Assembly (NCBI GenBank): GCA_005878515.1
Contig: VBLZ01000096.1
Coordinates: 1 to 36,171 of the forward strand
Direction: 5' to 3'
Length of the DNA: 36,171 nucleotides
Source of the DNA: Methanobacteriota archaeon
Lineage (GTDB): Archaea > Thermoplasmatota > Thermoplasmata > RBG-16-68-12
Shown: one piece after another, positions 1,557-24,462 of the stretch
Numbering within the stretch: the stretch's first letter is position 1
Layout: the number at the start of each line of letters is the position of its first letter
Program-made: the position numbers and the translations under genes
Notes under the pieces: generated by a model
The model's input: the letters and a program-made list of their open reading frames with translations, nothing else
Told to the model about the DNA's origin: nothing
Databases searched by the model: none

Positions 1557-1858
1557 TTTTGGATCACCGCGGGCTTGCGCACGCGAGTCGTTCAGGACGC
1601 GACGGCATCCGCTCTCGGGACGCGAGTCTGTGGAACAAGCTGCCGCCTCGTCCCATCCCTTGTTAGAAAGTGGCATCCGGAATTAAAGCTTTTGTTATCG
1701 GTACTGAAGATGGGACAATCCTGCGACGCGTGCGAAAATCGTCGCGTCCTCCCGGAGGAACGTGATCGCGCGTCGCGATTCGCACGCGGTTTCTTGTTGT
1801 AGCGAACGGACTCACAGAAATACAGAGCGCGCACGCTCGCATCGTGCGCCCGATGTCC

Positions 1859-4800
1859 TTACGTGTAGCTGCCCTGGATCAATTTCTTGATGTACGGGGT
1901 GAGGACCCGCGCGAGGCCCATGTCCCCGTCCCAGTCTTCGATCTGGTCCCAGTGATGATCTTCCATGTCCTTGATGCATCGCTCGATCTGGCTGGTCCAG
2001 CTCTGCGAGCCGTCGCCTTCGATCCGAGCCGCGAGCACGAGCCACTTGCCGCGGCCGATCAGGATGTGCATGTGGCCGACCGTCATCTCGTTTAGGTCGG
2101 CGTAGTCGTCCCCGCGGAGAGCGTCCTTGACGAACGCCTGCACCGCCGTGAGCATGCCGCTCAAGATGTCCGTGTCGACGTCGGGTCTGAGCCGTCGGGT
2201 CTCGTGCTTGATCAACAGGCCGTCCTTGTGATTGAGGAGGAACACATCCTCGAGGATCGCGTCGCTCGACTTCGCGGTCGTCGTTGGCGGCGGGGCGGCG
2301 GGCTTGGACGCCTCGGCCCCTCGTCGACGCAGGATGAGGAACGCGGCCGCGGCGACCGCCGCGCCGACGAGCACGAGGATCCACCAGAATTGCGCCAAGA
2401 CGCCCGGGGCGGTCGCGAATTGGAAGGTCTTCGACTGCACCATCGTGTTCCCGGCGAGATCGCGTGCGGTCGGATCGATCACGACGAAGTAGGTCGCTCC
2501 GGAATCGAGGTCGCGCGCCGGGACGAACGTCATGACGCGGGAATCCGAACTCCACAAGAATGCGCCGTCCATCGCGGGCGTGATCGAGAACGCGGCCTCG
2601 ACGGAGCTACGGTTCATGGGCTCGCTGAACGTCACGATGATCCAAGGCGTCAGGTTCGTGTTCGATCCGACGGGCCGAGAATCCGTCACGAACGGCGCCA
2701 AGACGTCAACAAGCGTCCACGTGTCGTTCGTCGCGGGAGCCGCTTCAACGTTCCCCGCGCGATCCCGCGCGATTGAACGGAAGGCATAGACATGGGCGCC
2801 TTGCCCCACGAATGTCGCGCCGGTCGCCGTCGTGTTCGTGTATCCCACGAGATCCGTCCAGGGATTCGTTCCATCTTTCCACTGAATGGCATATGCCGCG
2901 ATATCCGTCGTGCCGACGACGGGGCCCCATGCAATCGCGAATTGGAGGGCGTTCTCGTATCTCGGTAACGTCGTGACGGCGGAATCGGGTGGCGTGACGT
3001 CCACGATCGTCCACGACTCGTTTCCGGTCACCGTTTCGGTGTTCCCCGCGTGGTCCGTGGCGACCGAGCGGAACTGGTACGTGTGGCCATCCTGGCCGGT
3101 GAACGATCCCGAGGTCGTCGCAGCCGTCGCCACGAGCCAGTCCGTCCAGCCGGCCCCGTTGTCATTCACTTGAACGTGGTAGGTCGAGACGTCCGTCGTC
3201 CCCTCGGTCGGTCCCCAGTAGACGGTGAAGGAGAGGGAGGCTTCGTACCTCGGCAGGGCCAGCGTGCGGGAGGTCGGAGCGATCGTATCGACCATCGTCC
3301 ATGTGTCGTTCGATGCCGGGGGGACCTCGACGTTGCCCGCGGCGTCCGTGGCGATCGACCGGAAGGCGTAGATCCCTTGGCCCGAGGCCGTGAACGTCCC
3401 GGACGTCGCGGTCGTGCCGACGAGCCAGTTCGTCCAGCCGGCGGCTCCGGCATTGGATTGGATCGTGTAGGAGGCGATGTCCGTCACGCCCACATCCGGT
3501 CCCCAGGACACAAGGAACGCGCTCCGGTTTTGGTACTGGCTCAACGCATTCACATGGGAGCCCGGCCGGACCGTGTCGACGATCGTCCACGTATCGTTCG
3601 CGGACGGGCGGGATTCTCGGTTCCCCGCGGCATCCTCCGCCGTCGTGGCGAACTCGTACGCCCCGTCGGCCGACGCCGTGAACGAGAGGAAGCCGAAGTT
3701 CCCGCCAGGTTGGACGGAGTACTGAATCCAGATCGCGCTCCCGGCCGTCCGGTACCACAGGGTGATATTGGCCACCCCAGTCCCGTTCCCGTCCGAAGCG
3801 CTGTACGAGACCCAGAAGGTGAGCGTGTTCTCATACGTCGGCAAGGGGCTGGCCGCGGACGTCGGAGCGTCTTTGTCGACCATCCCGAACGATTCCGTGT
3901 GGCTGGTCCCCATGTTTACGGACCGCGGGTCGTTGGTGAACGCGTAAGGCGGGTACATCACGCTGACCTGGGTCACGTTGTCGGTCGGGACCGGCGAGTT
4001 CACGTAGATGCGGTCCGTGACGAGGATCCAGGATTGGATGCCGGAAGGGGCCGTGCGATCCCAGATCGTCGTGCTTCCGTCCGCGACCTTGATGTGGGCC
4101 CCGGCGACCGGCGTGAAGCCGTTCGGCCAGAGCGCGTCGACCTCGAGGAAGTTCCGGACGGTGAGATTTCCTGCGGCCATCACCGCGAGCTTCGTGAACG
4201 GACTGTTCACCGCAATCGCTTCCGTGTAGTTGTCCACATAGAACTCGTAGCTACCGATCGACGACAGCGTCGCGTTGTCAGCCGTGAAGTGGATCTTGGA
4301 CGTCTTGTTTCCGATGAGGTAGTATCCGTCCGCATAGGACGACTGAATCGGGGGGCCACTGCCCGATCCACCTTTCGTCACGCCCGAGATCGTATCCCCC
4401 GCGGAGAGGCCATTCAGGACGAGTCCCGAGATGACGCCGAACGCATCCCCGCCGCGGCCACCGTTCGTCCCGATGAGCGAGTCCCCGCCCCGGCCGCCTT
4501 GCATCGCGGTCACCCAGTTCGACGAGAAGCTCGGAGACGTGTACACGGCCGCGATCCCCGCGGCCGCGCCCCCGTTGCCGCCGAACCGCGTGCCGACGCC
4601 CCCGGCTCCGCCGGTGACGATATCCACTTGGTTGAAACTGGCCTGGGTGTTGTTGAATGCGCCGTCGTTGTTCCCGAAGAAGATGACTCCGGTCGCGTTG
4701 CCGCCGTACCCGCCGCGCAGGCCGCGGCCTCCGTCCCCGGCCGTCAGGGTCGTCAAGGTGTTGGCGTGGACCGTCGCCGGGCCTGCGACGTAGAAGACCG

Positions 4801-9478: not shown

Positions 9479-10912
9479 ATGCCTCGCGACCTAGGCGGCC
9501 AGCGTATGCAAGGGGCGATCGAAGCTCTGCTTTCCGGTCTCGTACTCCGAGGCCTCGGCCCGGCCCTCTCGGGAATCCTGATGGCCGCTCCGCTGAAGAA
9601 AGTCGCCCGGGCGCAGCTCAAGAAGATCTACGTCCTCGATGAGCGCGGCGAGATGGCCGGGGAATACATCCTCGATCAGGATTGCCCGATCGACTACAAC
9701 GACTTCCTGAAGGTCTTGCCCGACGAAGGGATCGGCGACCGCGATTCCTTGTTCGTGGGCGAATATGTTTTCACGGCGTTCCAGAGCGGCAAGTTCGTGT
9801 TTGTCCTCCTGTCGCGCGGCCAACTCGCGCCCGAGGATGTCAACTGGACCGCCCTCCTCCTTACGGCCGCGGATTCGCATCTCGCGTCCGCGGTGAATCG
9901 TCCCGCACCCGCCCGTGCCGCCGAACCGAAACCGGACGTCGACAAGGGAATCGCGGAACGCGATGCGCGCCTCCAAGCGAAAGAGAAGTCCCTCGCCGAG
10001 CTCGAGGCGAAGCTCAAGGCGGATGCGGCGAACCTGAGTGGACGGCAGGAGGAGCTGGACCGCCAGAAGGCGAGGCTCGCGGCCCTCGCGGACTTTTCCA
10101 CGCAATTGCAGGATGCGGTGTCGAAGGGCGCCTCCCGGTCGGCGAAGACCCTGGAGATCGCGGAACAGCTCGCGACGAGCTCCAACGAGGATTCGAAGAA
10201 GGCCGAGTCGAAGGCCAGCTCGGACGCGCGACAAGCATTCGAGCAGGAGCGGAAAGCGCTCATCGCGGCGAAGACCGAACTCGAAACTCGCTACCAAGAG
10301 GCTTCTGCCCGAATCGCCCAACTCGAGAAGGAGGCGAAGGACTCGGTCGCCTTCCTCGAAAGGGAACGGGCGGAGACCGCGGTTCGGTCGGCGGAAGAAG
10401 AGAAGACCCGCCGCGAAATCGAGAGCCGGGTGGCCGACCTGAGTCAGCGTTTCACGTCAATGGCGAAAGAGCGGCTCGTGGCCTCGCATCGCCCCCCCGG
10501 CGAGGTCTCTGACGAGGTTCGGAAGGCGATGGAAGGCGAGAAAGCCGAGCTCGCGCGGGAGCGCAAGTTCCTCCAGCGTCGGGCGATCGAGCTCCTGGAC
10601 CGCGAGGAGCGGGTTCGGGACCGCGAAGCACGGGTCGAGGAACGAGACCGCGAATTCGGGCGACGGGACAAGGATCTCTCCGCCCGCGAAGAGGATCTAG
10701 ACCGGCAACGGACGCTCCTCGCGCAAGCAAAGCCGCAGGCGCCCGAGATCCGCGCCGAACCGGACGAAGCGAAGAAAGACATCGAGCGGCGCGTGAAGAT
10801 CATCCAGCAGAAGGCGCTGGAGCTGCTGGACCGGGAGGAAAAACTGCGGAGGCGCGCGGCGGAGCTCGAGGCGATGGAGTCCCGGCTCTCCGGAAGGGTG
10901 ACGGTCGAGTGA
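9479..10912 (+). CDS. Coiled-coil protein with an N-terminal hydrophobic segment and a juxtamembrane-type alpha/beta module. It appears paralogous to the cytoplasmic tail of the downstream giant protein.
   Basis: 477 aa. The N-terminus is AIEALLSGLVLRGLGPALSGILMAAPL followed by the basic stretch KKVARAQLKK. The module KIYVLDERGEMAGEYILDQDCPIDYND...FVFVLLSRGQLAPEDV spans nt 9620-9900. About 330 aa of E/R/A/K/L-rich sequence follow. Two copies of the motif (K/R)(F/I)(L/I)Q+(K/R)A.(E/D)(L/V)LD(R/Q)EE+(L/I/V)R lie at nt 10562-10621 and 10790-10852. An alternative start is the ATG at 9506. Confidence 0.85.
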   Translation: MPRDLGGQRMQGAIEALLSGLVLRGLGPALSGILMAAPLKKVARAQLKKIYVLDERGEMAGEYILDQDCPIDYNDFLKVLPDEGIGDRDSLFVGEYVFTAFQSGKFVFVLLSRGQLAPEDVNWTALLLTAADSHLASAVNRPAPARAAEPKPDVDKGIAERDARLQAKEKSLAELEAKLKADAANLSGRQEELDRQKARLAALADFSTQLQDAVSKGASRSAKTLEIAEQLATSSNEDSKKAESKASSDARQAFEQERKALIAAKTELETRYQEASARIAQLEKEAKDSVAFLERERAETAVRSAEEEKTRREIESRVADLSQRFTSMAKERLVASHRPPGEVSDEVRKAMEGEKAELARERKFLQRRAIELLDREERVRDREARVEERDREFGRRDKDLSAREEDLDRQRTLLAQAKPQAPEIRAEPDEAKKDIERRVKIIQQKALELLDREEKLRRRAAELEAMESRLSGRVTVE

Positions 10913-11175: not shown

Positions 11176-14100
11176 GTGAAGGCGCGAACCGCGTTCCTCG
11201 TCGCCTTCGTCATGCTTGCAACCGCCGCCCTGGTGGTCGTCAGCCAGTCGATGCCCGACCCGCTCGCGAAGTTCAGGACTCCCGACGGTCGGCTCACGAT
11301 TCCGGGCCGTGCGTTGACCCCGGAACTGCAACGGCTGCTGTTCCATGGCAATGACCTGCAGCCTCTCACCAATGTCACCTTCCTTCTCCCGGTGCGATCT
11401 TCGTATCCGACGGAGCGCCTCGTCGCCATCTCATTCGCGTCTCCAAATCTCAACGTCTTGGTTCATCCGCGGCAAGCGCCGGAAACGTGGGGCAGCGCCA
11501 TCGATCACGTCCTCCGAGTGTGGTTCCCTCCCGTCGACTGGCACGAGGTGGCAGTCGGATTCCGAAACTCGATCCGGGACGGCGTTGGGTGGTTTTTCGA
11601 TCTCTTCACGATGAACGCCAAGGCCGACGCATTGACGGTCGATTCGACGACCGTCGCAGTCGTCGACCCCGCCGCGGCAACCTGCACGACCTCCCAATCG
11701 GCGGCCGCGGGCGACAACGCGGTACTCGTGATGCTCAGCAATCGCGGGCCCACCGCGTACGCGAGCGTCACGTACGGCTCGGTCAGCCTGAGCCTGATCC
11801 CCGGGACCGCCACGAGCGGCACCGGAATCGTGCGCTCGGAGATGTGGTTTTACCAAGGCGCGATTCCAGGCGGCGCTCAAACGATGACGGCCACCCTCGT
11901 GAGTGGCACCGCGAAACAAGTGTGTGCCACGGTCCTCTTAGGGGGAGTCTTGGCCGCGACCCCGACCGCAGGGGGAACCGCGGCGAGCGGGACGACTGCG
12001 AATCCGAACATCTCGATCTCCCCGGCATCCGCCGGTGAACTGGCCTTCGCGGTCCTGGGGATCCGAGGGACCACGGCACCGACGGCCGTCACCGGCACGG
12101 GGGCCACCGCGACGTCTCTCTATGGAATCGCGCCGACTCAGTGCGCCGCCGCGCCCAATAGTTTTTGCGGCGCGGGGGCCGACATGCCCTTCCCCGGGAC
12201 GGCAATCACGTGGACGGACGGCAACGCCACCGACTGGGTCATCTCCGCGGTTCGCGTGTTGCCCACCCCGAACTGCGGCGTTGCGTCGGGGAACTGCTAT
12301 CGGATCGGCGCGGGTGGGACGTGGGCCACGGGTGCGAACTGGTCGAACACGTCCGGCGGGGCGGCGTGCGGCTGCACGCCCGTTGCGACGAACGATGTGA
12401 TCTTCAATGCCACCCCCACCGGCACCACGACCCTTGCGGCAGCCACGACGATCGCGAGCATCGACATGACGGGCTTCACCGGCACGCTCGATACGACCGC
12501 ATCCAACTGGGCGCTCACCGTCAACGGTCCATTCGCCATTCAGGGGACGTTCCAGGCTCGGAGTTCGACGATTACGATCACCGGGGACGTCGACGTGCTC
12601 ACCGCGGCGACGATCATCAATCTCGGCGCATCGAGCTGGACGGTCAACGGCCTGTGGACCAACCTATCGACCTCCGCCTCGTGGGCCGCGGGGACGAGCA
12701 CGGTGACGATTCGAGATGCGACAAGCGGGACGCTCACATTCGCGGCACTGGCTGGCGGAGCGAACGAGTTCAACAATCTCACGCTGGATGCCAGCGTGAC
12801 TACGAGCATCACGTACACGATGGCAGTAAACCCGTTGAGGATGGGAGCGACCCTCACGATCCGCAACTCGACCGGCGGGGCGACGGGACCGACTATCTTG
12901 ACGACATCGGCGTCGAACTTCGGCATCACCGCGGGGGCGCTCGCCATTGCGACCTTCGGAAGCTTGACCGCGAACGGGTCGGCCATTGCGTTCAACGGCA
13001 ACGTGAACGTCAGCGCGGCGAACGGCTACGTCGTCATGGGTACGTCGGCATGGACCGTCACGGGGACCTGGACGAACGCGTCGACGTCCGCCTCGTGGAA
13101 CCCCGGGACCGGTACGGTCACGTTCACGAGCGCGACCGGCGGGACGATGACGTTCGCCGGGACGAATCTTCCGGGCAACGAGTTCAACAATGTTTCTTTC
13201 AACTCCTCGGCGGCGTCCGTCCAGACGTTCACGATGGCGACAAGGGCCCTCATCTGGGGCGGGACGCTCACGATCTCGGACGGTTCCTCGACGACGGCGC
13301 TCGCAACGGCCAATCTCGGCCTGACTGGCGGCGCACTCAGCGTCGGCAACGGCGGTATCCTCACCGCTAACGCTTCCACGGTAACCGTGTCGAGCGTGGC
13401 GATGACCGGGGGAACGAGCGGAACGATCACGCTCACGACCGGCTCGTTCACCAGCAGCGGCAACTGGGACACGAGCGGAGCCGGCTCCGTGTTCACGAAG
13501 GGCACGAGCACGGTGACGATGAGCGGTGTCGCCAACATCGCCATTCTGAACGCGAGCAACAACTTCAACAGCCTCGTCATCTCGGCGGCGGGAACGGTCA
13601 CCCAAACCGGCCTCGTGGACGTCTCCGGGACCTTGACGGTGAATGCCGGCTCAATCCTCGCGAGCGGCACCTTCACGCTGACCGTGGCCACCCTCGCAGC
13701 GAACATGGCGGGTGGAATCACCGGGGGGGCGGCGGGCACGAAGACGATCACCGGCAATGTCAGCATCGCCGCCTCGGGATACTTCGGCTTCGGTGCGACG
13801 ACTTGGAACTTCGGCGGTTCGTGGACGAACTCGTCGACGAGCGGATCGTGGTCCGCCGGAACGGGGACGGTCGTCTTCAACTCCGGCTCGTCTCGCACGA
13901 TGACCTTCGCCAACTTGGGAGTCTCTGAGTTCAACAACGTGCAGTTCGGCCCTACCGCCGCCGCGACGTTCACTATGGCGACGAACGGCCTCCGATGGGG
14001 AGGCACGTTGACCCTCAACAACAATGCGACCCTTTCGACCACGAACCTCGCGTTGACGGGCCCGGGAGGAAACCTCACGGTGAACAACGGGGCCACCTTG

Positions 14101-17100
14101 ACGGCGGGCACGTCCGCCGTGAGTGTGACCAACGTGGCGATGACCGGCGGAGTCTCCGGGACGATCACGGCCTCGGGCTCATGGACCGTCGCAGGGAACT
14201 GGGACACGTCCGGAGGGGGCTCCGTCCTCACGGCGGCTTCGAGCACCGTCACGATGAGCGGAGCCGCGAAGACCGTCAAGATCCTGAACGCCTCCAACGG
14301 CTTCGGCGCACTCACGATCAGCGGCACCGTCACCGCGGCATCGGCGATCACCCTGGCCGGCCTCCTGACGGTCAGCGGCACCTTCGACACGACCGCGACT
14401 AACTACGGCCTGTCCGTCGGCGGCGGCCTGACGGTCAGCAGTGCCACGGGGGTCTTCCGGTCAAACGGATCGACCGTCTCGGTGGCCGGGAATGTTTCCG
14501 TGAACAATGCGGGCGGCTACATCACGTCAGGCGGCGCCGGTTCGTGGACCGCCTCCGGATCCTGGACAAACGCGTCCACATCCGCGTCCTGGAATTTCGC
14601 GTCTCCCATCATGTTCAACTCATCGGCCTCCCAGACGATGACCTTCGCCGTCCTCCCGGGAGCTGCCTCCGAGTTCACCGACATCGCCTTCAACAGCGGC
14701 GCGTCGACCGTCACGTTCACCATGGCGGCGAACCGCCTCATTTGGTCGGGGACCTTGTCGGTCCAGGGTGGGGCCGGAGCGACGACCCTCGCGACGAGCA
14801 ACCTGGCCCTCACCGGCGGCGCACTCACCCTCGGCAACGGGGGTGTGCTGACCGCGAATGCATCGGCAGTCAGTGTATCGAACGTCGCGATGACCGGCGG
14901 TACCTCGGGCACGCTGACGCTGACCACCGGCGCGTGGACCGTGACCGGGATCTGGGACACCTCCGGCGCAGGATCGACATTCGCAGCCGGATCGAGCACC
15001 GTCACCATGACCGGAGCGGGCACGACCGTCAAGATCTTGGACTCGTCGAACGGGTTCGCCGCTCTCACCGTTAGCGGCACTCTCTCCGCGGCATCGGCCC
15101 TCACAACGGCGGGACTCGTCACCGTGAGCGGCACGCTCGACACGACGGGCGCGAACTACGGCCTCACGATCGGCGGCGGACTCACCGTCAGCGGTGCGAC
15201 CGGGGTCCTTCGCGCGAACGCCTCGATTGTCTCCGTCGCCGGGAACGTGAATATCAACAGCGCCACGGGCTACATCACGTCGACGGCCGGCGGTTCTTGG
15301 ACCGCGTCCGGATCATGGACGAACTCCTCGACATCGGCCTCGTGGAGCTTCGTCGCCCCGATCACCTTCAACTCCTCGGCCTCACGAACAATGACATTCG
15401 GCAACCCGACCCTGGAGTTCGCCGGGAACGTCACGTTCAACTCCGGCGCCTCGACGGTCACGTTCACGATGGCGGCGAACAGCCTGGACGTCGGCGGGAC
15501 GCTCACGATAGCGGGCGGAGCCGGCACGACGACGCTGAACACGAGTGGTTCAAACCTCGCGATCAACCCGGCCACACTGGTCGTGAACGCGGGAGGAGCC
15601 CTCACGGCCAACGGGTCCATCATCACGGTTACCTCGATGGATACCCATCTCGGGACATTCACGGTCGGCGCCTCGACCGTCGTCGTGAACGCGTCGGGCG
15701 GCTCCATTAACGTCACGCAGACGGTCAACAATCTCACGGTCACACCCGCCGTCTCGACGACGTTCACAGGATCTCTCACATGGACAGGAACGCTCGCCTT
15801 CACGAACGCCGGGAGCGTCGCATTCGGAACGAACAGCCTGACCTCGAGTGGCGCCGCGACCTTCACGTTCGCGTCGGCAACGATCACGATGAGCTCGGGG
15901 AACTGGGATACGTCTTCGGCCACGACCTTCACGGCGACGAGTTCGACGGTCACGTTCTCAGGGACGGGGAACCTTCGAGTCGGGGGAAGCGCCTCCTTCG
16001 GCGCGCTCACGGTCAGCGGCGGCACCCGGACCCTCCAGAGCCAACTCACGACGTCGGGACTGCTGACCCTTTCGGGCGGCACCCTCGCCAAGGGGACGAA
16101 CGCGCTCACCGCCAACGCCGGGATCACGATGTCGGGCGGCGCGCTCACCTCCACGTCCGGTGCGGTCAGCATCACCGGCAATGTATCGATCGCGGCCGCG
16201 TCCTACATCGTCTTCGGTTCCGAGACTTGGACCGTGAGTGGCTCGTGGACGGACAATTCCACGTCGGCGAGTTGGTCGATTGGAACCGCGACCGTGGCCT
16301 TCAACGCGTCCTCGGCGCAGACGATGACGTTCGCGGCGCTCCCGGGGAACGCACCCGAGTTTTACAACGTGACCTTCAACAGTGGCGCGTCAACGGTCAC
16401 ACTCACGATGACGACGAACGCGCTGGCTTGGTCGGGAATCCTCACGGTCCAAGGAGGGGGCGGGGCGACGACGCTCGCCACGAGCAATCTCGGACTCACC
16501 GGAGGCGCCATCGTCGTCGGCAATGCGGGAGTCCTCGCCGCGAACGCCTCCGCGGTGTCGATATCCGGATTGACGATGATTGGAGGGACCAGCGGCACGT
16601 TGACGCTGACGACCGGTTCATGGGCCGTCTCCGGCAACTGGAACACCAGCGGGGCGGGCTCGGCATTCTCGAAGGGAACATCGACGGTCACCTTCACCGG
16701 GGCCGGGCAGACGGTATCCATCCTCAACGCTTCGAACGGGTTCTACAACCTCGCCGTCTCGGGGACCGTCACCCAGTCCACCGCCATCGATGTGACGAAT
16801 TCCTTGACGGTGAGCGGAACTCTGACCACCGGAGGGTTCAACATTACGGGCGGTTCGAACCTCTCCGTCCCGGATGGTGGCACCCTGGCGGCAGGCACCT
16901 CGACGTCCACGTTCACGAACGTCACGATGACCGGCTCGATCTCAGGCACGATCACCCTGACGGGCGCATGGACGGTCAGCGGTTCTTGGGACAGCACCGG
17001 GGCAGGCTCGGTTCTGAACCCCGGGACATCGACCGTGACGTTTACCGGGACCTCGCAGACAATCAGCCTCGCGGCGGGCCAGACGTTCTACAATCTCACA

Positions 17101-20100
17101 ATCGGTGGCACGGTTTCCATCAACTCGTCGGTGACCGCGGCGGCGACGCTGACGGTGAACAACGGGGCCGTCCTCACAAAGACGGGCCAGACGATCGCCT
17201 TCAACTCCTTGACGCAGAACGGGACCGGGAGCATCGTCGACGGAGCGATCACCGTCGTGAACTTCTCCGTCACGAACAGTGATGGAACGAATCTCACGGC
17301 CATCAGCGTGTTCACGACATGGACGATCGACGCGGACTACACGTGGACCCATTCATCCACGGTCGCGACCTCGACGATCACCTTTACCATCGGAGGAAAC
17401 ACAATCGGGCATCGATTCAATGTGACTAAGGACGCCGTGGACTTCACGAATGGCTTCGTGAACGGCTCCGGGCAGATCATCTTCACGATGCTCGGTTCGG
17501 ACCCGGTCGTCGACGTCCGCCTTACATCGCCCTGCGGGGGGAATCGATATTGGATCGGTGGGACGGGTGGCTGGTCCCAGACAGGCCATTGGGCGGATTC
17601 GTCGGGCGGGGTGAATGGATGCTCCGTGCCGAACTCTTCGAATCCGGTCTTCTTTGACGCGAGCTCCGGAGGCGGAAGCGTCGCGATTAATCTGAATGGG
17701 GCCGCGGCTTCGCTCAACACGACCGGGTGGACCGGGACGATTGCAATCGGATCGTTCGACCTCGCTGTGAGCGGCGACATTATCCATGCCGCGGGAATCA
17801 TTTCGATTGGCGCCTCCTCGAATGCCGGCCTGACGGCAACCGGGACGCTCACTCTCTCGGGTTCCGCAGTCCTCGACGGGTCCGGCGTGGCGTCTCTGGT
17901 TGCGATCTCCGGCGACACGTCAATCGCGAGTACGTCGGCCTACTTCCGGATGGGCAGCGGCACCTGGACATTCGCAGGCTCCTGGTCTAACAGCAGCACC
18001 TCGACGAACTGGGTCGCGGGAACCGGCGTGGTCATCTTCGATTCGCCGTCTTCGCGAACGTTCACTTTTGCGAATCTGGCGGGCAACGAATTCCACGATG
18101 TGACATTCCAGTCCACGGCGGGCAGCGGCGCAATCATCTTCTCGATGGCAGCGAACGGTCTGCGCTGGAGCGGACTCCTCCAGATCCAAGATTCCGCGGG
18201 ATCGACGACCACCCTGGCGACATTGAATCTCTCCCTGACCGGCGGATCCCTTGCCGTCGGCAACTCGGGAGTGCTCATCGCAAACGCGTCGAGCGTCGCC
18301 GTGGTCGACGTCGCGATGACCGGCGGCGCGTCGGGAACGCTGACCCTCACGAGCGGGTCTTGGACCGTGAGCGGGCAGTGGGACACCTCGGGCGCCGGTT
18401 CGACGTTCGCTCGAGGCACCAGCACGGTCACGATGTCGGGCACGTCGGCGAGCGTCGCGACCCTCGATGCGACCAACGGATTCAACAATCTGGTCATCTC
18501 TGGGACCATCACGCAGAACACCGCGCTCGAGGTGCGCGGCACACTGTCCGTGACGGGCAGGCTCACCACAGCGGGAAACAACATCACCGGCGGTGCCAAC
18601 CTCGCGATCTCCGGAGGCGGAAGCCTGATCGGGACCGCGTCTTCGATCGTCGTCTCCGGGGTGACGATGAACGACGCCGGGACGAATTCCATTTCCCTGA
18701 CGACCGGCTCGATTTCCGCGTCGGGCTCATGGGACACCTCCGGATCGTCCTCGGCTTTCATTGGTGGCTCGTCCACGGTGACCCTCACCGCCGCCTCCGG
18801 AACGATCGCTCTCGGGCCTGCTCAAGCGCTCACGTCGTTAATCATCGCAGGGAGCCTCTCGTCGGTATCTCCGTTGACGGTCTCTTCCCTCACCATCTCC
18901 TCGGGTGGACTCGCCAACGGCCCGCACGCGCTCACGGTGAACGGGAACGTGACGTTGGCCGGTGGCTACCTCACCTCGACGTCCGGGTCCGTCTCGATCG
19001 CGGGAACCGTGAACGTCTCTTCGGCGTCGTCCTACATCGCGTTTGGCTCGGGAACCTGGGTCATCTCCGGGAATTGGACGAACGCGTCGACCTCGGCATC
19101 TTGGTCCGCAGGATCTGCCGTTGTCACATTCAACTCGACGACGGATCAGATCATGACGTTCGCTGGTGCCAACTTGGCCGGCAACGAATTCAGCACGATT
19201 GAGTTTGACAGCGGCTCCTCGACCACGACGTTCACGATGGCCTCCGACGGGCTTGTGGCGCAGACAATCACGATCCAAGGTGGCCCCGGGACGACCACGT
19301 TGACGACCTCGGGCGCGAGCCTCCCGATTATCGCGAACGCCCTGACGGTTGACGTTGGCGGGGCGCTCACCGCGAACGCGAGCATCCTGACGGTTCGCTC
19401 GCTGAGCACTGCCGCCGGCGCATTTGCTGCCGGGACCTCGACCGTCGTCGTCAACATCTCCGGCGGCTCCATCAACGTCACGCAGACTCTGCACGATGTC
19501 GTCGTGAGCCCTGGGATCAGCACGACCTTCGCCTCGAGCATCACTTGGTCCGGGGCGCTGACACTGACGAGTTCCACGTCCATTTTCGACGGCAATCTCA
19601 CTTCGAGCGGTCCTGCGGTCCTCAATCTGGGAACCTCCACGCTGTCGATCGCGGGATCATGGGACACCTCCTCGGCAGCGACCCTCATGTCGATCGGCTC
19701 CGCGGTGACCTTCACCGGCGGGAGCGGCTCGATCACCCTCGGTGCGGGCCAGCGGTTCGCCACACTGACCATCGCCGGGACCGTCGCTCTCGGGTCCGAC
19801 CTGACCGCGGACACCCTGTCCGTGACGACCTCGAACGTACTGACGATGACGAGCCACCGCATCGCATTCAACAGCCTGACGGTCAACGGGACGATTGCGG
19901 ACGGATCCGTGAACGCGACCGACCTCACGGTCACGAACAGCGATACGACGGCCTTGGTCACCATCGCGGGGTTCAGCGAGTGGTCCCGAGGTTCCGCGTA
20001 CGCCTGGACCCATACCTCCAGCGAATCGTCCCAGACGATCACGTGGTCGATTGGTGGAAATGCCGCGGGCATCCCGTATACGGTGACGAAAGACGGCTCG

Positions 20101-23100
20101 TCGTTCGCAACCGGAACCGTCACCAGTTCCGGTCAGGTCGTCTTCACGATGCTCGGGTCCGACCCCGCGATGCAAGTGACGGTGCACAATCCGATTCCGC
20201 CGCCATGGTGGCAGTCCTCCTACATGCTTGCGATCTTTCCCATTGGAATCTTGTTAGGTGTTGCAATGTTCGCGCAACGACAGCGCTGGAGGCCCGCGAA
20301 GGCCTTCCTCGTGGACGACAGCGGGAGAATGCTCAGGGAATTCACCCTGGACTCGGCCTGCCTGGTCACGTACGACCAGGCGGTCCAGGCCGGCATCTTG
20401 GACGCGGTCGAGAAGCCAATCAAGGTCGCAAAGTACCACGGCCAGACGGTCCGCGGGGATGCACTGGCGGTCGTGCTCCTCGCCTACGGACCGGTCACGC
20501 CGGAGCACGTAGAGTTCGCTCGGGAGATGCTCGTCCAGATTCAGGACAAATTCGAGGACGCGGTCAAGCAACGTCTGGAAGAGGCCCGTGCCCAAGAGGC
20601 CAACGTGGCGACGCAGATGGACGACCTCGCGACCCACCGGGCCGAAGTCGAGGCCCGAGCGGCCGAAGTCCAAACGATGGCCCAGCAAGCGGAGACCGTC
20701 CAGGCGAAAATCACCGCGGACACCGAGGCCGTCGAAGCGAAGGAGCAGGATCTTCGACGACGGGAAGAGGAGTTGGCGAACAACCGCAAGGCCGTCGATG
20801 AGCTGGCCCGCCAAATCGAAGAGGACCGGAGCTCCCTCGACCGACGCACGGGGGAAGTTCAAGACCGGGCGGCCGAAATCGCCGCGAAGTCCGAGACGGT
20901 CCAGGGTCGAGAGGAAGCGGTCAGCGCGCTCGAGGAGACCCTTCGGGACCGAGACACGGCCCTCGCGACGGGAGAAGCCGGACTTCAGGAAATCCGGGAG
21001 CGCCTTGCGACGGACACGTCGGCGGTGCAAGCGAGACTCGAAGAAGCCGGACAGCGTGAGGAAGCCCTCGGTCGCAATCAAGAAAACCTCTCGAATGCCC
21101 GCGAGAAATTCGAGGCGGACCAGAGAGAGCTGCTCGAGTTCAAACGTTCCATCGACAGCCGGGTCAGCGCCGTCGAGGAGACCGAAGTCGCGATGGACCG
21201 TCTGTCGAAGGACCTCGCCGCGCGAGAAGCCCGCATCGTGCCCGAGGAGTCACGCCTCGCGGAGCGGGCGAATGTCGCGAACCAGAAGGAAGCCGATCTG
21301 AAAGCCCGCGCGGACGAGCTGACAACGAGAACCCAGACGCTCGACGGGCGCGAGCAGGAGCTGACCAGCCGCGAAGTCGCGGTCAACGAGGACCGCGTGG
21401 TCCTCGAGGAAGCGCGCGGGGCGTTCGAGTCCGATCGGAGAGAGTTCGAGGAGCGCAAGAACCAGCACGACGAAGAGGCGCGCCGACGTCGAAACGACCT
21501 GGACGGTCAAGCCAAGACGGTCGGCGAGAGTCAGCTTCGCTTGGCCCAGGAGAAGGAAAATCTCGATACTGCGCACAGCGAGAGGAGTCAGGCTATCCTG
21601 TCCCGGGAGATCGAGCTCGAGGCCCGCGAACAATCCCTCCAAGAGAACGAAGAAGCCAACCGCACCCAGGCGGACGAAAACGCCAGGCGCTTTGGCGAAC
21701 TGGCCGGTCGGGAGGAGTCCCTCGAAATCGAAGCAGCGAAGGCCGACAAGGTCCGGAGCGACCTCGAAGCCCGGAAGGCCGATCTCGCGAATCGCGCCAA
21801 AGAACTCGAGGAAGAGGGGGCTCGATTGCGGGGCGAGGAGACGAAGGCGGCCGAGGAGAGACGGACCTGGCAGACGACGTTGCAGTCCGAGCAAGCGTTG
21901 CTCAAGGGCCAGCGAGACGCGTTCGAGCAGGACGCCGCTTCGGCGCGTGCCTCGTGGGCCGATCGGGTAATGCGGATTGAGGCGCGCGAAGTCGACGTCG
22001 AAGAAAAGGAAGAAAAGGTCCGGACCGACATCGACTGGGTCGCTCGAAGCGACGAGGACCTCAAGCGCCGCGAGAAGGCCGCCGAGGAAGCGGGGCGGTC
22101 CGCGGCGCAGGTGCAGGCGAGCGCCGAACGCGCTACGAAGGAGGCCGAACAGCGATTCCTCGAGATCGAGTCGCGCGAACGCGCCCTTCGGGAAGAGGCC
22201 GCGCACGAAGCGATCGAACTCACCAAGCGGACGGAGGCGTTGAAGCAATTCGACACCGAGCTGAGTTCGAAACAGGCCGACTTCGAGAAGGAGCGAACGG
22301 TGCAGACCCAGCGACTCCAGGAGACCGAGACCGAGCTGCATTCAAGGGCCGACACCCTGGAGGCGAAACGCCGCGAACTAGAGGAACGAGAGACCCGCAT
22401 CGCGGGGACGGAGGAGTCGCACCGGCAGAGCGACCAGCGACTTCAGCAGGAACGTGCCGACCTCCAGGCGACCGCGAAACAGCTCGAATCCCACCAGCTC
22501 GAACTCGCGCAGCTCAAAGACCGTTACGAGTCGGAAGCCGCACGCGTCCGCAGTGAAGCGGAGGGCATGCGGCAATCCGTGGCGGCCAAGGAGTCGGAAC
22601 TGCATGCCGAGCGCGAGCGGATCGAGCGCGATTCGTCCGCCCTCCAGGAGACCCTCGGCGCGAAGGCGAAGGAGATGTCGGTCCGAGAACGAGCGCTCAC
22701 CGCGCGCGAGGCAGAGCTCCAAACCGAAGAGCAAGAGCTCGAGGCCCGCGGACGAGAGCTCGAATCAAAAGAACGCCAAGCCGAAGCCCATCTGACCGAG
22801 ATGTCCGCGCAGGCAATGGCCCTCATCCGGCGAGAGCAGGACCTGAACGCCCGAGGAACCCAGATCGAACAGACCGTGCGTCGGTTCGAGTCGGAGGCGA
22901 CGGAGAAACGCCGCGAGTGGGAGTCCCTTCAGACGAGCCTGAAGTCGCAGCAAGCCCAATTCACTGTGTCGTCGGAATCTCGCGCCGGCGAGCTCGCGAA
23001 GAAAACGGAGGAGCTTGAGGGACGGGATCGCAGCCTGCGCGCGTCTTCGGCCCAGTTGGAGGTCGAACGATCCAAGCTCGATGCTGAAGCGAAAAACCAA

Positions 23101-24462
23101 TCCGCCAAAAGCGCAGAAGCGGATGCGGCCTGGCGACGATCGGAAGCCCGTCTCGCGGAGCTCAAGGCGAAGGAAGACGAGTTGCTCCGTGCCCGCCAGT
23201 CCTTCGAATCGGACCGCTCCACCTGGTCCGCCCGACGAACCGAAGAGCTGAAGCAACTCGAGGCGACGCGGGATGCGGCCGCACAACAAGCCCAGCAGAC
23301 GGAGCGGCTCCTGGCGGAGTCCCAGCGCAGGGCCCTCGTCGCAGAAGAAGCGGAGCGCGCGGCAAAACGCCAGACGACCGACCTCGCCGCTCAACAGGCG
23401 CGCCTGGAGAGTCGCCGGGCCGAAGCCGAGAAGGCGGAGCGCGACGCACAAGGTCACCTGGCACAGTTGCAGGAAGCTTCGCGGAAATTGGCGGTCAAGG
23501 ACATGGAAATCGTTACCGCCGTCAAGGATCTCGAGGCGCGGCAGTCGAAGCTTGCGGCCGCGGAGAGGGATTCCGCGGCGATTCAAGCGGAGTTGCGCTC
23601 CCGAAAAACGACCTTGGACCAAGACGCCGCACGAATCACCGCGTCGTCGGACCAGCTGACGATGCGCCAGAAAGATCTGGAGTCGCGGACGGCCTCCCTC
23701 GAGACCAAGGTAGCCCAGGCCTCTACGAAAGAACAGGCCCTGGCGACGGAACTGCAACGCGCGGACAACCTCATGGAGGATCTCACCAAGAAGGAGCACG
23801 ACCTTCGCGCCCGCGAAGAGGCCGCGAAGACTTCCGAGAAGACTCTCGCGGCACGGGAGACGACCCTCGTCGCACGCGATGCCGAGGTCCGGGACGGGAT
23901 GCGGAGCCTCGAAAAGCTCCGCAAGGAAATCGAAGACCAGCGCGGCGCCACCGAGGAAGACCGTCGAACCGCGAAGACCACCCGAGAGGAAGCGGAATCG
24001 ACGAAGCGCGAGGCAGACAAGATCCGGGCTCAGGCCGACGAAATGCAGTCGGAGGTGAACAAGAACCTCCGGTTCCTCCAGAAGAAAGCCCTCGACGTGT
24101 TGGATCAGGAGGAGAAAATCCGAGCTCGCGTCGCCGCGATCGAAGGGGAGGAGAAATCGCTCGACACCCGGGCGGAAATCCTCGAAGGGAAAGAGCGGGC
24201 CCTCGAAGCGGACCAGGCCGCTCTCGACTCCAAGGTCGCGAAGCTCCAGGCCGAGATCGATCGATTGCGCGGGAGCATTGCCGATGCGGAGAAATCCGGA
24301 GGCCCGACGACCGCCGCGATGGAAGAGTGGAAGAAGGACGTCGAGAGTCGCGTGAAGATCATTCAGAAGAAGGCCATGGACCTGCTGGACCGCGAGGAGA
24401 AACTCCGGAAGAAAGAGGAGGAGCTCCGCGCGCTCGCGAGCCAACTCGGCGTGAACCCCTGA
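11176..24462 (+). CDS. Giant (4,428 aa) single-pass membrane protein. It has a signal/anchor, a ~3,000-aa uncharged T/S/G/A-rich beta-solenoid-like repeat ectodomain, a TM helix, a ~95-aa alpha/beta module and a ~1,300-aa charged coiled-coil tail.
   Basis: The ORF is an uninterrupted 13,287 nt. The GTG at 11176 is the first start codon after the in-frame stop at 11080-11082. It is followed by MKARTAFLVAFVMLATAALVVVSQ. The TM helix SSYMLAIFPIGILLGVAMFAQ lies at nt 20215-20277 and is followed by RQRWRPAK. The tail is E/R/A/K/Q/L-rich with very few Pro or Gly residues. Confidence 0.92.
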   Translation: MKARTAFLVAFVMLATAALVVVSQSMPDPLAKFRTPDGRLTIPGRALTPELQRLLFHGNDLQPLTNVTFLLPVRSSYPTERLVAISFASPNLNVLVHPRQAPETWGSAIDHVLRVWFPPVDWHEVAVGFRNSIRDGVGWFFDLFTMNAKADALTVDSTTVAVVDPAAATCTTSQSAAAGDNAVLVMLSNRGPTAYASVTYGSVSLSLIPGTATSGTGIVRSEMWFYQGAIPGGAQTMTATLVSGTAKQVCATVLLGGVLAATPTAGGTAASGTTANPNISISPASAGELAFAVLGIRGTTAPTAVTGTGATATSLYGIAPTQCAAAPNSFCGAGADMPFPGTAITWTDGNATDWVISAVRVLPTPNCGVASGNCYRIGAGGTWATGANWSNTSGGAACGCTPVATNDVIFNATPTGTTTLAAATTIASIDMTGFTGTLDTTASNWALTVNGPFAIQGTFQARSSTITITGDVDVLTAATIINLGASSWTVNGLWTNLSTSASWAAGTSTVTIRDATSGTLTFAALAGGANEFNNLTLDASVTTSITYTMAVNPLRMGATLTIRNSTGGATGPTILTTSASNFGITAGALAIATFGSLTANGSAIAFNGNVNVSAANGYVVMGTSAWTVTGTWTNASTSASWNPGTGTVTFTSATGGTMTFAGTNLPGNEFNNVSFNSSAASVQTFTMATRALIWGGTLTISDGSSTTALATANLGLTGGALSVGNGGILTANASTVTVSSVAMTGGTSGTITLTTGSFTSSGNWDTSGAGSVFTKGTSTVTMSGVANIAILNASNNFNSLVISAAGTVTQTGLVDVSGTLTVNAGSILASGTFTLTVATLAANMAGGITGGAAGTKTITGNVSIAASGYFGFGATTWNFGGSWTNSSTSGSWSAGTGTVVFNSGSSRTMTFANLGVSEFNNVQFGPTAAATFTMATNGLRWGGTLTLNNNATLSTTNLALTGPGGNLTVNNGATLTAGTSAVSVTNVAMTGGVSGTITASGSWTVAGNWDTSGGGSVLTAASSTVTMSGAAKTVKILNASNGFGALTISGTVTAASAITLAGLLTVSGTFDTTATNYGLSVGGGLTVSSATGVFRSNGSTVSVAGNVSVNNAGGYITSGGAGSWTASGSWTNASTSASWNFASPIMFNSSASQTMTFAVLPGAASEFTDIAFNSGASTVTFTMAANRLIWSGTLSVQGGAGATTLATSNLALTGGALTLGNGGVLTANASAVSVSNVAMTGGTSGTLTLTTGAWTVTGIWDTSGAGSTFAAGSSTVTMTGAGTTVKILDSSNGFAALTVSGTLSAASALTTAGLVTVSGTLDTTGANYGLTIGGGLTVSGATGVLRANASIVSVAGNVNINSATGYITSTAGGSWTASGSWTNSSTSASWSFVAPITFNSSASRTMTFGNPTLEFAGNVTFNSGASTVTFTMAANSLDVGGTLTIAGGAGTTTLNTSGSNLAINPATLVVNAGGALTANGSIITVTSMDTHLGTFTVGASTVVVNASGGSINVTQTVNNLTVTPAVSTTFTGSLTWTGTLAFTNAGSVAFGTNSLTSSGAATFTFASATITMSSGNWDTSSATTFTATSSTVTFSGTGNLRVGGSASFGALTVSGGTRTLQSQLTTSGLLTLSGGTLAKGTNALTANAGITMSGGALTSTSGAVSITGNVSIAAASYIVFGSETWTVSGSWTDNSTSASWSIGTATVAFNASSAQTMTFAALPGNAPEFYNVTFNSGASTVTLTMTTNALAWSGILTVQGGGGATTLATSNLGLTGGAIVVGNAGVLAANASAVSISGLTMIGGTSGTLTLTTGSWAVSGNWNTSGAGSAFSKGTSTVTFTGAGQTVSILNASNGFYNLAVSGTVTQSTAIDVTNSLTVSGTLTTGGFNITGGSNLSVPDGGTLAAGTSTSTFTNVTMTGSISGTITLTGAWTVSGSWDSTGAGSVLNPGTSTVTFTGTSQTISLAAGQTFYNLTIGGTVSINSSVTAAATLTVNNGAVLTKTGQTIAFNSLTQNGTGSIVDGAITVVNFSVTNSDGTNLTAISVFTTWTIDADYTWTHSSTVATSTITFTIGGNTIGHRFNVTKDAVDFTNGFVNGSGQIIFTMLGSDPVVDVRLTSPCGGNRYWIGGTGGWSQTGHWADSSGGVNGCSVPNSSNPVFFDASSGGGSVAINLNGAAASLNTTGWTGTIAIGSFDLAVSGDIIHAAGIISIGASSNAGLTATGTLTLSGSAVLDGSGVASLVAISGDTSIASTSAYFRMGSGTWTFAGSWSNSSTSTNWVAGTGVVIFDSPSSRTFTFANLAGNEFHDVTFQSTAGSGAIIFSMAANGLRWSGLLQIQDSAGSTTTLATLNLSLTGGSLAVGNSGVLIANASSVAVVDVAMTGGASGTLTLTSGSWTVSGQWDTSGAGSTFARGTSTVTMSGTSASVATLDATNGFNNLVISGTITQNTALEVRGTLSVTGRLTTAGNNITGGANLAISGGGSLIGTASSIVVSGVTMNDAGTNSISLTTGSISASGSWDTSGSSSAFIGGSSTVTLTAASGTIALGPAQALTSLIIAGSLSSVSPLTVSSLTISSGGLANGPHALTVNGNVTLAGGYLTSTSGSVSIAGTVNVSSASSYIAFGSGTWVISGNWTNASTSASWSAGSAVVTFNSTTDQIMTFAGANLAGNEFSTIEFDSGSSTTTFTMASDGLVAQTITIQGGPGTTTLTTSGASLPIIANALTVDVGGALTANASILTVRSLSTAAGAFAAGTSTVVVNISGGSINVTQTLHDVVVSPGISTTFASSITWSGALTLTSSTSIFDGNLTSSGPAVLNLGTSTLSIAGSWDTSSAATLMSIGSAVTFTGGSGSITLGAGQRFATLTIAGTVALGSDLTADTLSVTTSNVLTMTSHRIAFNSLTVNGTIADGSVNATDLTVTNSDTTALVTIAGFSEWSRGSAYAWTHTSSESSQTITWSIGGNAAGIPYTVTKDGSSFATGTVTSSGQVVFTMLGSDPAMQVTVHNPIPPPWWQSSYMLAIFPIGILLGVAMFAQRQRWRPAKAFLVDDSGRMLREFTLDSACLVTYDQAVQAGILDAVEKPIKVAKYHGQTVRGDALAVVLLAYGPVTPEHVEFAREMLVQIQDKFEDAVKQRLEEARAQEANVATQMDDLATHRAEVEARAAEVQTMAQQAETVQAKITADTEAVEAKEQDLRRREEELANNRKAVDELARQIEEDRSSLDRRTGEVQDRAAEIAAKSETVQGREEAVSALEETLRDRDTALATGEAGLQEIRERLATDTSAVQARLEEAGQREEALGRNQENLSNAREKFEADQRELLEFKRSIDSRVSAVEETEVAMDRLSKDLAAREARIVPEESRLAERANVANQKEADLKARADELTTRTQTLDGREQELTSREVAVNEDRVVLEEARGAFESDRREFEERKNQHDEEARRRRNDLDGQAKTVGESQLRLAQEKENLDTAHSERSQAILSREIELEAREQSLQENEEANRTQADENARRFGELAGREESLEIEAAKADKVRSDLEARKADLANRAKELEEEGARLRGEETKAAEERRTWQTTLQSEQALLKGQRDAFEQDAASARASWADRVMRIEAREVDVEEKEEKVRTDIDWVARSDEDLKRREKAAEEAGRSAAQVQASAERATKEAEQRFLEIESRERALREEAAHEAIELTKRTEALKQFDTELSSKQADFEKERTVQTQRLQETETELHSRADTLEAKRRELEERETRIAGTEESHRQSDQRLQQERADLQATAKQLESHQLELAQLKDRYESEAARVRSEAEGMRQSVAAKESELHAERERIERDSSALQETLGAKAKEMSVRERALTAREAELQTEEQELEARGRELESKERQAEAHLTEMSAQAMALIRREQDLNARGTQIEQTVRRFESEATEKRREWESLQTSLKSQQAQFTVSSESRAGELAKKTEELEGRDRSLRASSAQLEVERSKLDAEAKNQSAKSAEADAAWRRSEARLAELKAKEDELLRARQSFESDRSTWSARRTEELKQLEATRDAAAQQAQQTERLLAESQRRALVAEEAERAAKRQTTDLAAQQARLESRRAEAEKAERDAQGHLAQLQEASRKLAVKDMEIVTAVKDLEARQSKLAAAERDSAAIQAELRSRKTTLDQDAARITASSDQLTMRQKDLESRTASLETKVAQASTKEQALATELQRADNLMEDLTKKEHDLRAREEAAKTSEKTLAARETTLVARDAEVRDGMRSLEKLRKEIEDQRGATEEDRRTAKTTREEAESTKREADKIRAQADEMQSEVNKNLRFLQKKALDVLDQEEKIRARVAAIEGEEKSLDTRAEILEGKERALEADQAALDSKVAKLQAEIDRLRGSIADAEKSGGPTTAAMEEWKKDVESRVKIIQKKAMDLLDREEKLRKKEEELRALASQLGVNP
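12271..17526 (+). repeat. Ectodomain super-module 1. It has a Cys-containing head (NCGVASGNCYRIGAGGTWATGANW), six W-anchored repeat units and a beta-sandwich-like tail (TITFTIGGNTIGHRFNVTKDAVDF...IIFTMLGSDPVVDV).
   Basis: The first Trp codons of the anchor motif SWTxxGxWTNxSTSxSW lie at nt 12636, 13051, 13804, 14545, 15298 and 16228. Spacings are 415, 753, 741, 753 and 930 nt. By eye, units 4 and 5 are about 80 percent identical at the nucleotide level. Confidence 0.85.
17527..20193 (+). repeat. Ectodomain super-module 2. It has a head (SPCGGNRYWIGGTGGWSQTGHW), two W-anchored units and a tail (TITWSIGGNAAGIPYTVTKDGSSF...VVFTMLGSDPAMQV).
   Basis: The head and tail are clearly homologous to those of super-module 1. 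Anchor Trp codons lie at nt 17965 and 19057. The tail nucleotide strings ttcacgatgctcggttcggacccg (17483) and ttcacgatgctcgggtccgaccccg (20145) match. Confidence 0.85.
20215..20277 (+). other. Predicted single transmembrane helix of the giant protein (aa ~3014-3034).
   Basis: It is the only ~21-residue hydrophobic stretch after the N-terminal signal. The ectodomain side is uncharged and the C-terminal side is basic (RQRWRPAK), which by the positive-inside rule implies N-out/C-in topology. The local GC content drops visibly here. Confidence 0.7.
20560..24440 (+). other. Cytoplasmic coiled-coil region of the giant protein (~1,300 aa).
   Basis: The region is rich in E/R/A/K/Q/L, with long Pro/Gly-free runs. 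A degenerate xRE(E/Q/R)x(L/V/I)xxxE element recurs about 20 times. Examples are QGREEAVSALEE, DGREQELTSREV, EAREQSLQENEE, AGREESLEIEAA, ESRERALREEAA and SVRERALTAREA. Confidence 0.75.

Follow-up and report, generated by a model that had tools for sequence, protein, structure and literature searches.

Juxtamembrane modules of predicted Roadblock/longin class in large surface-associated proteins of a Thermoplasmata archaeon

The stretch of 36,171 nt analysed here (hereafter the window; Thermoplasmata, assembly GCA_005878515.1, contig VBLZ01000096.1) encodes a giant protein, a protein of 477 amino acids (aa) and a protein of 1,458 aa, referred to as A, B and C, each of which carries a compact module behind a hydrophobic segment. 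These modules are proposed to be cytoplasmic juxtamembrane domains of the Roadblock/longin class, for which a structural role, as a dimerisation or docking platform, seems most likely rather than an enzymatic one; a probability of about 0.5 is given to this reading. It is carried by a confidently predicted longin-like fold of the module of C, by the clear homology of A and B at both ends of their cytoplasmic parts, and by the structural neighbours of a weaker model of the A module. As far as sequence comparison goes, the window appears to hold two copies of one domain family, termed AB-type, and one member of a second, termed C-type.

An initial annotation made from the sequence had described one module common to the three proteins, possibly Roadblock/LC7- or longin-like, and had quoted a peptide for each. 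All three peptides were found in the translations, those of A and B in frame on the plus strand at 20296-20580 (AKAFLVDDSGRMLREF...KFEDAVKQRLE) and 9620-9900 (KKIYVLDERGEMAGEY...DSHLASAVN), and that of C on the minus strand, where the range had to be corrected to 1862-2269, since 2270 lies one base out of frame. The view of one module in three proteins held for A and B, which are homologous, and not for C, which is not demonstrably of the same family. The fold proposal was well supported for C and only suggested for A and B.

The three proteins and their modules

The G+C content of the window is 64%. Over 8.3 kb it matches a JGI metagenome contig (L029) at 99.6% identity, and over 20 kb the contig 'Thermoplasmata archaeon isolate SMAG_U13408' at 87%. 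The features on which the argument depends are as follows.

11176..24462, plus strand: protein A, 4,428 aa (translation)
20221..20274, plus strand: transmembrane helix of A, YMLAIFPIGILLGVAMFA, aa 3016-3033, mean hydropathy 2.07
20281..20583, plus strand: AB-type module of A, aa 3036-3136, a few residues wider on each side than first annotated
20584..24039, plus strand: cytoplasmic coiled-coil rod of A (by composition), ~1,150 aa ahead of the tail, 68% E/K/R/A/Q/L
24040..24459, plus strand: conserved tail of A (BLASTP to the B tail)
24073-24123 and 24349-24408, plus strand: tail motifs of A, FLQKKALDVLDQEEKIR and RVKIIQKKAMDLLDREEKLR, respectively
9479..10912, plus strand: protein B, 477 aa counted from the first ATG (translation)
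9506..9592, plus strand: N-terminal segment of B, aa 10-38, possible membrane anchor (orthologue conservation, hydropathy)
9608..9895, plus strand: AB-type module of B, aa 44-139 (profile E = 9.6e-37)
10535..10909, plus strand: conserved tail of B (BLASTP to the A tail)
10568-10618 and 10790-10849, plus strand: tail motifs of B, FLQRRAIELLDREERVR and RVKIIQQKALELLDREEKLR, respectively
1859..6235, minus strand: protein C, 1,458 aa (translation; Pfam)
2330..2389, minus strand: transmembrane helix of C, FWWILVLVGAAVAAAAFLIL, aa 1283-1302, followed by RRR
1862..2269, minus strand: C-type module, aa 1323-1458, the last 136 residues, with predicted longin topology

Protein A is composed of a signal-like N-terminus, a repetitive ectodomain of ~3,000 aa, a single transmembrane helix, the module, a coiled coil and a conserved tail. 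The ectodomain consists of repeats rich in Thr, Ser, Gly and Ala; along 11176-20220 (plus strand) these are long and degenerate, and strings such as 'SWTNxSTSASW', 'EFNNVxF' and 'TFTMAxNxLxWxGTLT' recur. The transmembrane helix is followed by QRQRWRPAK, in keeping with the positive-inside rule, and then by the module, beyond which ~1,290 residues rich in E, K, R, A, Q and L extend to the C-terminus.

Protein B has a conserved hydrophobic N-terminus, the module, a coiled-coil-like stretch of ~340 aa and the tail. Its orthologues begin at M10 (MQGAIEAL..., nt 9506) and not at the first ATG at 9479, which indicates M10 as the true start. The N-terminal segment reaches a best 19-residue Kyte-Doolittle mean of 1.56 (1.05-1.99 in the orthologues) with Arg inside it; its ~30 residues (MQGAIEALLSGLVLRGLGPALSGILMAAP) are conserved among orthologues, with Arg and Gly-Pro in the middle of the segment. 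This N-terminus could be a helical hairpin or an amphipathic anchor instead of a classical transmembrane helix. The modules of A and C lie on the cytoplasmic side beyond a hydrophobic helix, as the term 'membrane-proximal' in the initial annotation implied; for B, whose preceding segment is moderately hydrophobic, the term is uncertain.

Protein C presents a signal peptide, a NosD-like beta-helix with Gly-rich repeats, Ig-like Big_5 domains, a transmembrane helix, a Pro/Ala linker and the C-terminal module. Its ectodomain was matched by the Pfam families Big_5 (5.6e-14) and NosD (1e-9), and between transmembrane helix and module RRR is followed by a linker of ~25 residues. Within the NosD-like region, at aa ~300-620, a long Gly-rich stretch of GGxGGxG type (e.g. 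GGRGGDGQANTGGTGGRGGNGG) is found at 5000-5300 of the window (minus strand). In the Pfam scan of the whole of A and B no family was matched (for A, none at E<=1), and in NCBIfam A gave only sub-threshold matches of SMC type to its coiled coil.

The relationship between A and B was evident at both ends of their cytoplasmic parts. Their modules were aligned by BLASTP at E=6e-9 (28% identity, 104 residues) and their tails, the last 125-140 residues, at E=3e-23 (36% identity over 135 aa). The tails hold two motifs in common, FLQ[KR][KR]A[LI][DE][VL]LD[QR]EE and RVKIIQxKAxxLLDREEKLR, which are related to each other and lie ~90 residues apart, and neither Pfam nor NCBIfam has a match for them. Because head and tail are both homologous and the rods between them differ about four-fold in length, A and B are considered paralogues.

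Predicted fold of the C-type module

The C-type module was modelled with AlphaFold2 (AF2) from an alignment of 22 sequences, with identities down to 37%, and the model reached a predicted local distance difference test score (pLDDT) of 81.6 and a predicted template modelling score (pTM) of 0.77. Its elements (strands E5-13 and E19-24, helix H33-51, strands E60-64, E67-73 and E77-84, helices H89-111 and H118-131) follow the order strand-strand-helix-strand-strand-strand-helix-helix, which is the longin topology. The same order is found in the N-terminal domains of Sec22b, VAMP7 and Ykt6, in the adaptor-protein (AP) sigma subunits and the N-terminal part of mu, and in COPI zeta. A Foldseek search of the PDB with this model returned 11 matches at E<=1e-3, led by AP-1 sigma3, COPZ1, AP-2 sigma, a Prometheoarchaeum Roadblock homodimer and Sec22b. 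For example, AP-1 sigma3 (9ddt_B) was matched at E 1.6e-4 with template modelling (TM) scores of 0.62/0.69, Sec22b with TM 0.67-0.72 (1ifq) and 0.70 (2nut_C), and VAMP7 with TM 0.65 (4afi), so that solved longin domains superpose on the model at TM 0.6-0.7. The VAMP7 longin domain, LAMTOR, Ego3 and MglB-type proteins were also among the matches. Taken as a model-based assignment, a longin-like fold is therefore confidently predicted for the C-type module, and the initial proposal of a Roadblock- or longin-like fold fares well for this protein.

Longin domains lack the N-terminal helix of Roadblock domains and carry an extra C-terminal helix (PMC10933270). The Roadblock N-terminal helix, which packs on the sheet and opens the order helix-strand-strand-helix-strand-strand-strand, is missing from the models of both C and A, each of which opens with two strands; the C model closes with two helices.

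The conservation of C along its length is uneven. Relatives of the C-type module were sought in metagenome contigs by a pattern scan, which yielded 169 encoding stretches, and the figures that follow cover the best 80 of them. The module stood at the extreme C-terminus in 80/80 loci, with no more than 14 residues after it in the stop-to-stop frame; the frames measured ~1,250-1,650 aa unless cut by a contig end. Identity to C of the window was 85-92% in the module where it was 49-67% in the ectodomain, which suggests that an interaction inside the cell is under constraint while the surface evolves fast. In one locus (L001, 9531-10489) the C orthologue is shrunk to ~330 codons, with the signal peptide and the start of the beta-helix in one frame and the transmembrane helix and module in another; either a frameshift accompanied the loss of much of the ectodomain, or the repeats collapsed in the assembly.

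Fold of the A/B head

The module of A was modelled from 16 sequences, with the predicted elements E2-11, E16-21, H30-35, E51-56, E60-67 and H73-104: there are only four strands, the stretch between the short helix and the later strands is unmodelled, and no second C-terminal helix is distinct from the rod, the last helix (73-104) running unbroken to the end of the query and into the rod. Nearly all of the top 50 Foldseek matches of this model were LAMTOR, MglB, Streptomyces Roadblock/LC7, COPI zeta, AP sigma, Ego or SRX chains. The Foldseek comparison of AlphaFold models that had been suggested at the outset thus led from C to longin and Roadblock chains, and from A to the same class through weak matches. 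On these models the A/B head is placed tentatively in the Roadblock/longin class.

Several results weigh against a common Roadblock/longin reading of the three modules. The model of A is of low confidence (pLDDT 56.9), and its best Foldseek match had E 4.4e-3, with TM 0.26-0.38 and root-mean-square deviations of 11-15 Å over the matches. By sequence, neither module could be tied at significance to the Roadblock or longin families. The homology of A/B and C was not demonstrable either: with the shallow and the deeper A/B alignments, hhalign gave a probability of 1-2% and P 0.01-0.05. The term 'coiled coil' for A and B reflects their residue composition, together with a single helix of the model and SMC matches below threshold. 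Finally, rods of ~1,290 aa in A and ~340 aa in B, an approximately four-fold difference, are a poor fit to a simple full-length A-B heterodimer.

As to the family searches behind the second of these points, Pfam scans at E<=10 assigned no family to the three window modules and gave single weak hits only among 51 AB-type and 22 C-type members. Robl_LC7 (PF03259, gathering score 23 bits) matched 0/3 window modules at E<=10 and 0/51 AB-type members; among the C-type sequences 1/22, the most divergent member P0046, was matched over profile positions 15-89 at 14.6 bits and E=0.027, below threshold. No longin family of Pfam (e.g. Longin, Clat_adaptor_s, Fuz_longin) matched the window modules or the 22 C-type members, and Fuz_longin_1 matched 1/51 AB-type members at E=0.18. 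Profile searches of PDB sequences with two A/B-type alignments and the C-type alignment returned nothing below E=0.1, and in NCBIfam only sub-threshold coiled-coil matches to SMC, ASRP and HmpF were obtained.

The comparison of A/B with C deserves a fuller account. By BLASTP the modules of A and B met that of C at E 0.6-0.7. The A/B alignment, shallow at first, was deepened by an exhaustive HMMER search of 1.84 billion representatives, and with 56 non-redundant A/B-type modules (effective number of sequences, Neff, 5.1) hhalign against the C-type alignment gave a probability of ~2% and P ~0.01-0.03. The resulting alignment runs end to end, pairing first hairpins, helices and hydrophobic strands in the same order. 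Its local score of 17.0 was matched by 1/100 column-shuffled and 4/100 block-shuffled C alignments, and the reversed C alignment scored 10.1. The C-type module was not matched by the non-redundant AB-type family profile hidden Markov model (HMM). The profile-profile comparison named as a check in the initial annotation is thus not significant; BLASTP, hhalign and the shuffle controls taken together are suggestive of homology at best (P ~0.01-0.04), and the A/B-C similarity is regarded as a hint only, the two being treated as separate families.

An alternative explanation is that the three modules are unrelated lineage-specific globular linkers whose common order of elements is coincidental, the A/B head lying outside the Roadblock/longin class. 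The non-significant profile comparison, the block shuffles that equalled the real score in 4/100 cases, and the low-confidence A model with Foldseek TM <=0.38 all favour this explanation. It is nevertheless considered unlikely, given that the hhalign alignment spans both modules with the elements in the same order, that a single fold class fills nearly all of the top 50 neighbours even of a poor A model, and that the longin-like fold of C is confidently predicted.

In the course of the profile searches, the A/B profile aligned DERGEMAGEYVLDADCPIDYDDFLKVL with the fourth EF-hand of calmodulin at E ~0.3-0.5. This candidate was rejected: the loop has a hydrophobic residue at position 1, Cys in place of Gly at position 6, and Asp, Asn or Gln in place of Glu at position 12. 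The stretch concerned (DERGEMAGEYILDQDCPIDYNDFLKVL), at 9640-9720 and 20320-20400 (both plus strand), is where the A/B head forms its first hairpin and helix, and its single Cys is conserved save in one subgroup.

The AB-type family

With the A/B profile, the exhaustive search identified 98 proteins at E<=1e-3, and for 56 of these the match reached E<=1e-10. The non-redundant family HMM recognised A at 9.3e-34 (aa 3068-3165 of the stop-to-stop open reading frame, ORF) and B at 9.6e-37. In 49 of the 54 members with at least 100 residues beyond the head, the downstream part was at least 60% E/K/R/A/Q/L. A strongly hydrophobic helix ends ~4-5 residues ahead of the head in 31/84 scored members, and this helix may itself follow an ectodomain of hundreds to >3,000 residues; the remaining members start with the head. 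A motif of the type RVKIIQxKAxxLLxREEKLR was present in 14 members, 32-44 residues from the C-terminus. Within the head, K6, E19 and G69 occur in >=90% of the sequences, and the Cys of the LDxxC(x)V motif is kept in every listed member except those of a K-A/S-D/E-V subgroup.

Orthologues of A, of 2,273-4,484 aa, were found in Thermoplasmata metagenome-assembled genomes (MAGs), with the module at aa 913-3,093. Their ectodomains vary from ~900 to 3,100 residues, and their cytoplasmic heads are 73-93% identical. The titles of 20 loci retrieved with the A/B module profile from one-genome-per-species contigs were nearly all Thermoplasmata, Methanobacteriota, Euryarchaeota or Methanomassiliicoccales archaeon MAGs; one short contig was titled as a Paceibacterota bacterium MAG.

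In genomes of related Thermoplasmata three genes stand in tandem on one strand: that of a short soluble paralogue, then B, then A. In 8 related loci the giant is immediately preceded by an orthologue of B, or in 9 if L025 is included, where the two ORFs are ~4 kb apart. The short paralogue, made up of the head and ~90 residues of coiled coil, was seen directly upstream of the B orthologue at L001 5166-5855 (minus strand), L024 3437-4219, L018 3517-4275, L013 77-793 and L026 1904-2863. The short paralogue is missing from the window, where an ACT-domain gene (8972-9346) abuts B. The wider neighbourhood of A and B is syntenic and of housekeeping character, with genes for ADP-forming acetyl-CoA synthetase, EamA or glyoxalase, ACT, the paralogue cluster, a cystathionine gamma-synthase-like enzyme and ferredoxin. 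Distant soluble members were met in other surroundings: one (L027, 5375-7615) adjoins a P-type ATPase, with NAD-dependent ligase, PolX and MttB further downstream, and another (L028, 8001-8747) adjoins a DnaJ-domain gene. Since these contexts are unrelated, the AB-type family appears to have no fixed operon partner beyond the soil clade.

Directly downstream of C, on the same strand, lies a gene at 3-1682 (minus strand) that runs off the left end of the window; it encodes a PAN/Rpt-like AAA ATPase carrying a proteasomal-ATPase OB domain.

Relation to small GTPases

Another explanation is that the modules are small-GTPase regulators or platforms of the MglB, Ragulator or TRAPP kind. In that case a Ras-superfamily GTPase would be recruited or switched at the membrane, and the coiled coils would serve as effectors or scaffolds. 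In favour of this explanation, GTPase binders (MglB, LAMTOR, AP sigma, COPI zeta, SRX) dominate among the structural neighbours of the two models. The genomic evidence was negative. A regular-expression scan for the G1-G3-G4 GTPase motifs, a crude and local test, found them in 0/3,123 ORFs of >=50 aa from the window and 26 related loci, in agreement with the remark in the initial annotation that no GTPase gene was visible in the window. Neither in the window nor in four other contexts did the Pfam-annotated neighbours include a GTPase family, and no CvnA-like kinase or DUF742 gene was found nearby. The negative motif scan and neighbour annotation lowered the standing of this explanation, and the small-GTPase link, which the initial annotation had itself called speculation, finds no support in these loci of housekeeping surroundings. 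In Asgard archaea the genes of GTPases and of Roadblock or longin proteins are generally not in the same operons (PMC10933270), for which reason the missing linkage counts little and is taken as weak evidence against such a link. The absence of a significant match to the Robl_LC7 or longin Pfam families also argues against a GTPase platform, as does a genome survey that placed archaeal MglA (group 4) almost entirely in methanogenic Euryarchaeota (PMC4316618). On balance, a role in GTPase regulation is judged improbable.

Proposed organisation at the membrane

In the preferred reading, that of juxtamembrane Roadblock/longin-class platforms, A and B belong to a paralogous family with a common plan of a conserved head, a coiled-coil rod of very variable length and a conserved tail with two motifs. 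In A the head begins a few residues beyond the transmembrane helix, and its last helix is predicted to run straight into the rod. Roadblock and longin domains are dimeric platforms, often at membranes, and are abundant in archaea (PMC10933270). In the same manner two heads may pair at the inner face of the membrane, either homotypically or between co-encoded paralogues, which would start a parallel coiled coil and fix its register. In this way the fast-evolving surface ectodomain would be tied to a rod with a putative length of ~50 nm in B and ~190 nm in A at 0.15 nm per residue, and the conserved tail may provide a common binding site at the far end of the rod. The longin-like domain of C makes up the whole cytoplasmic part of that protein and is presumed to link it to a conserved cytoplasmic partner, which may be the same scaffold.

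The position of the head also admits a different function, namely that of a small-ligand or redox sensor relaying signals between the rod and either the ectodomain or the membrane. Placement right after a transmembrane helix is typical of transducer modules, and the near-universal Cys of LDxxC(x)V (save in the K-A/S-D/E-V subgroup), together with K6, E19 and G69 at >=90%, would suit a sensor. This function is thought very unlikely, however: only one Cys is conserved and no pattern for binding a metal or cofactor is present, many members are soluble proteins that lack both a membrane segment and an ectodomain, and the head is followed by coiled coil only, with no output domain. In the EF-hand-like match, moreover, calcium ligands are missing from positions 1 and 12 of the loop, as is Gly from position 6.

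A more ambitious extension of the platform reading, held with little confidence, is that the tandem paralogues (short form, B and A), possibly with C, constitute a surface-to-cytoplasm linkage in soil Thermoplasmata. The heads would be paired under the membrane, and rods of 50-190 nm would make up a skeleton or a ruler at the membrane, linking the hypervariable, adhesin-like ectodomains with the inside of the cell. Such a system might represent a prokaryotic, GTPase-free counterpart of the longin-plus-coiled-coil membrane machinery.

Comparison with known systems

In longin SNAREs, too, a single chain unites the domain with a membrane anchor and a coiled coil, as would be the case in A and B. 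The order in the SNAREs is domain, SNARE motif and C-terminal anchor, whereas in A and B it is reversed, the membrane helix being followed by the domain and then by the coiled coil; furthermore, the coiled coil of the SNAREs measures ~60 aa and those of A and B 340-1,300 aa, with no SNARE motif identified in the latter. The large ectodomains, the Thermoplasmata host and the lack of a sequence match to the longin families of Pfam set the present proteins further apart from the longin systems.

The Roadblock/LC7 proteins (PF03259: MglB, LAMTOR2/3/4/5, the dynein light chain Roadblock, Streptomyces CvnB) have the core alpha/beta sandwich in common with the predicted modules and are among the neighbours of both models. 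They are small free-standing proteins whose homo- and heterodimers are built on the central helix and an edge strand, whereas the AB-type domain shares its polypeptide with a giant coiled coil as well as a transmembrane helix, and they possess an N-terminal helix, which the modules described here lack, together with any match above the Pfam threshold.

A third comparison is offered by long coiled-coil rods with SMC-, CRWN- or HmpF-like annotations. The weak SMC, ASRP and HmpF matches of the AB-type rods are compositional and far below the cut-offs, and one AB-type member was named 'chromosome segregation ATPase' by its source. The ATPase head and hinge of SMC-like rods are missing from the A/B family, in which the head is the AB-type alpha/beta module.

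No description of either family, or of this architecture in Thermoplasmata, was found in full-text searches of the literature. An arrangement that runs from an ectodomain through a transmembrane helix and a Roadblock/longin-like head into a very long coiled coil with a conserved tail is covered by no curated family and did not come up in these searches either.

Implications

Roadblock and longin domains are chiefly familiar from small stand-alone proteins that act as small-GTPase platforms, and in archaea they are treated as markers of eukaryote-like membrane biology. The proteins described here would present this fold class in another setting, fused in cis under the membrane to huge surface proteins, an assignment that is confident for C and tentative for A and B. 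If the A/B head has another fold, the family would still constitute a new conserved head-rod-tail architecture. If the assignment holds, two unannotated domain families, the AB-type with at least 98 sequence clusters and the C-type with 169 metagenome stretches that encode a relative, would be added to this class, and the uses of Roadblock and longin domains would extend beyond GTPase regulation. These families would then also provide a handle on the connection between envelope and cytoplasm in uncultured soil Thermoplasmata.

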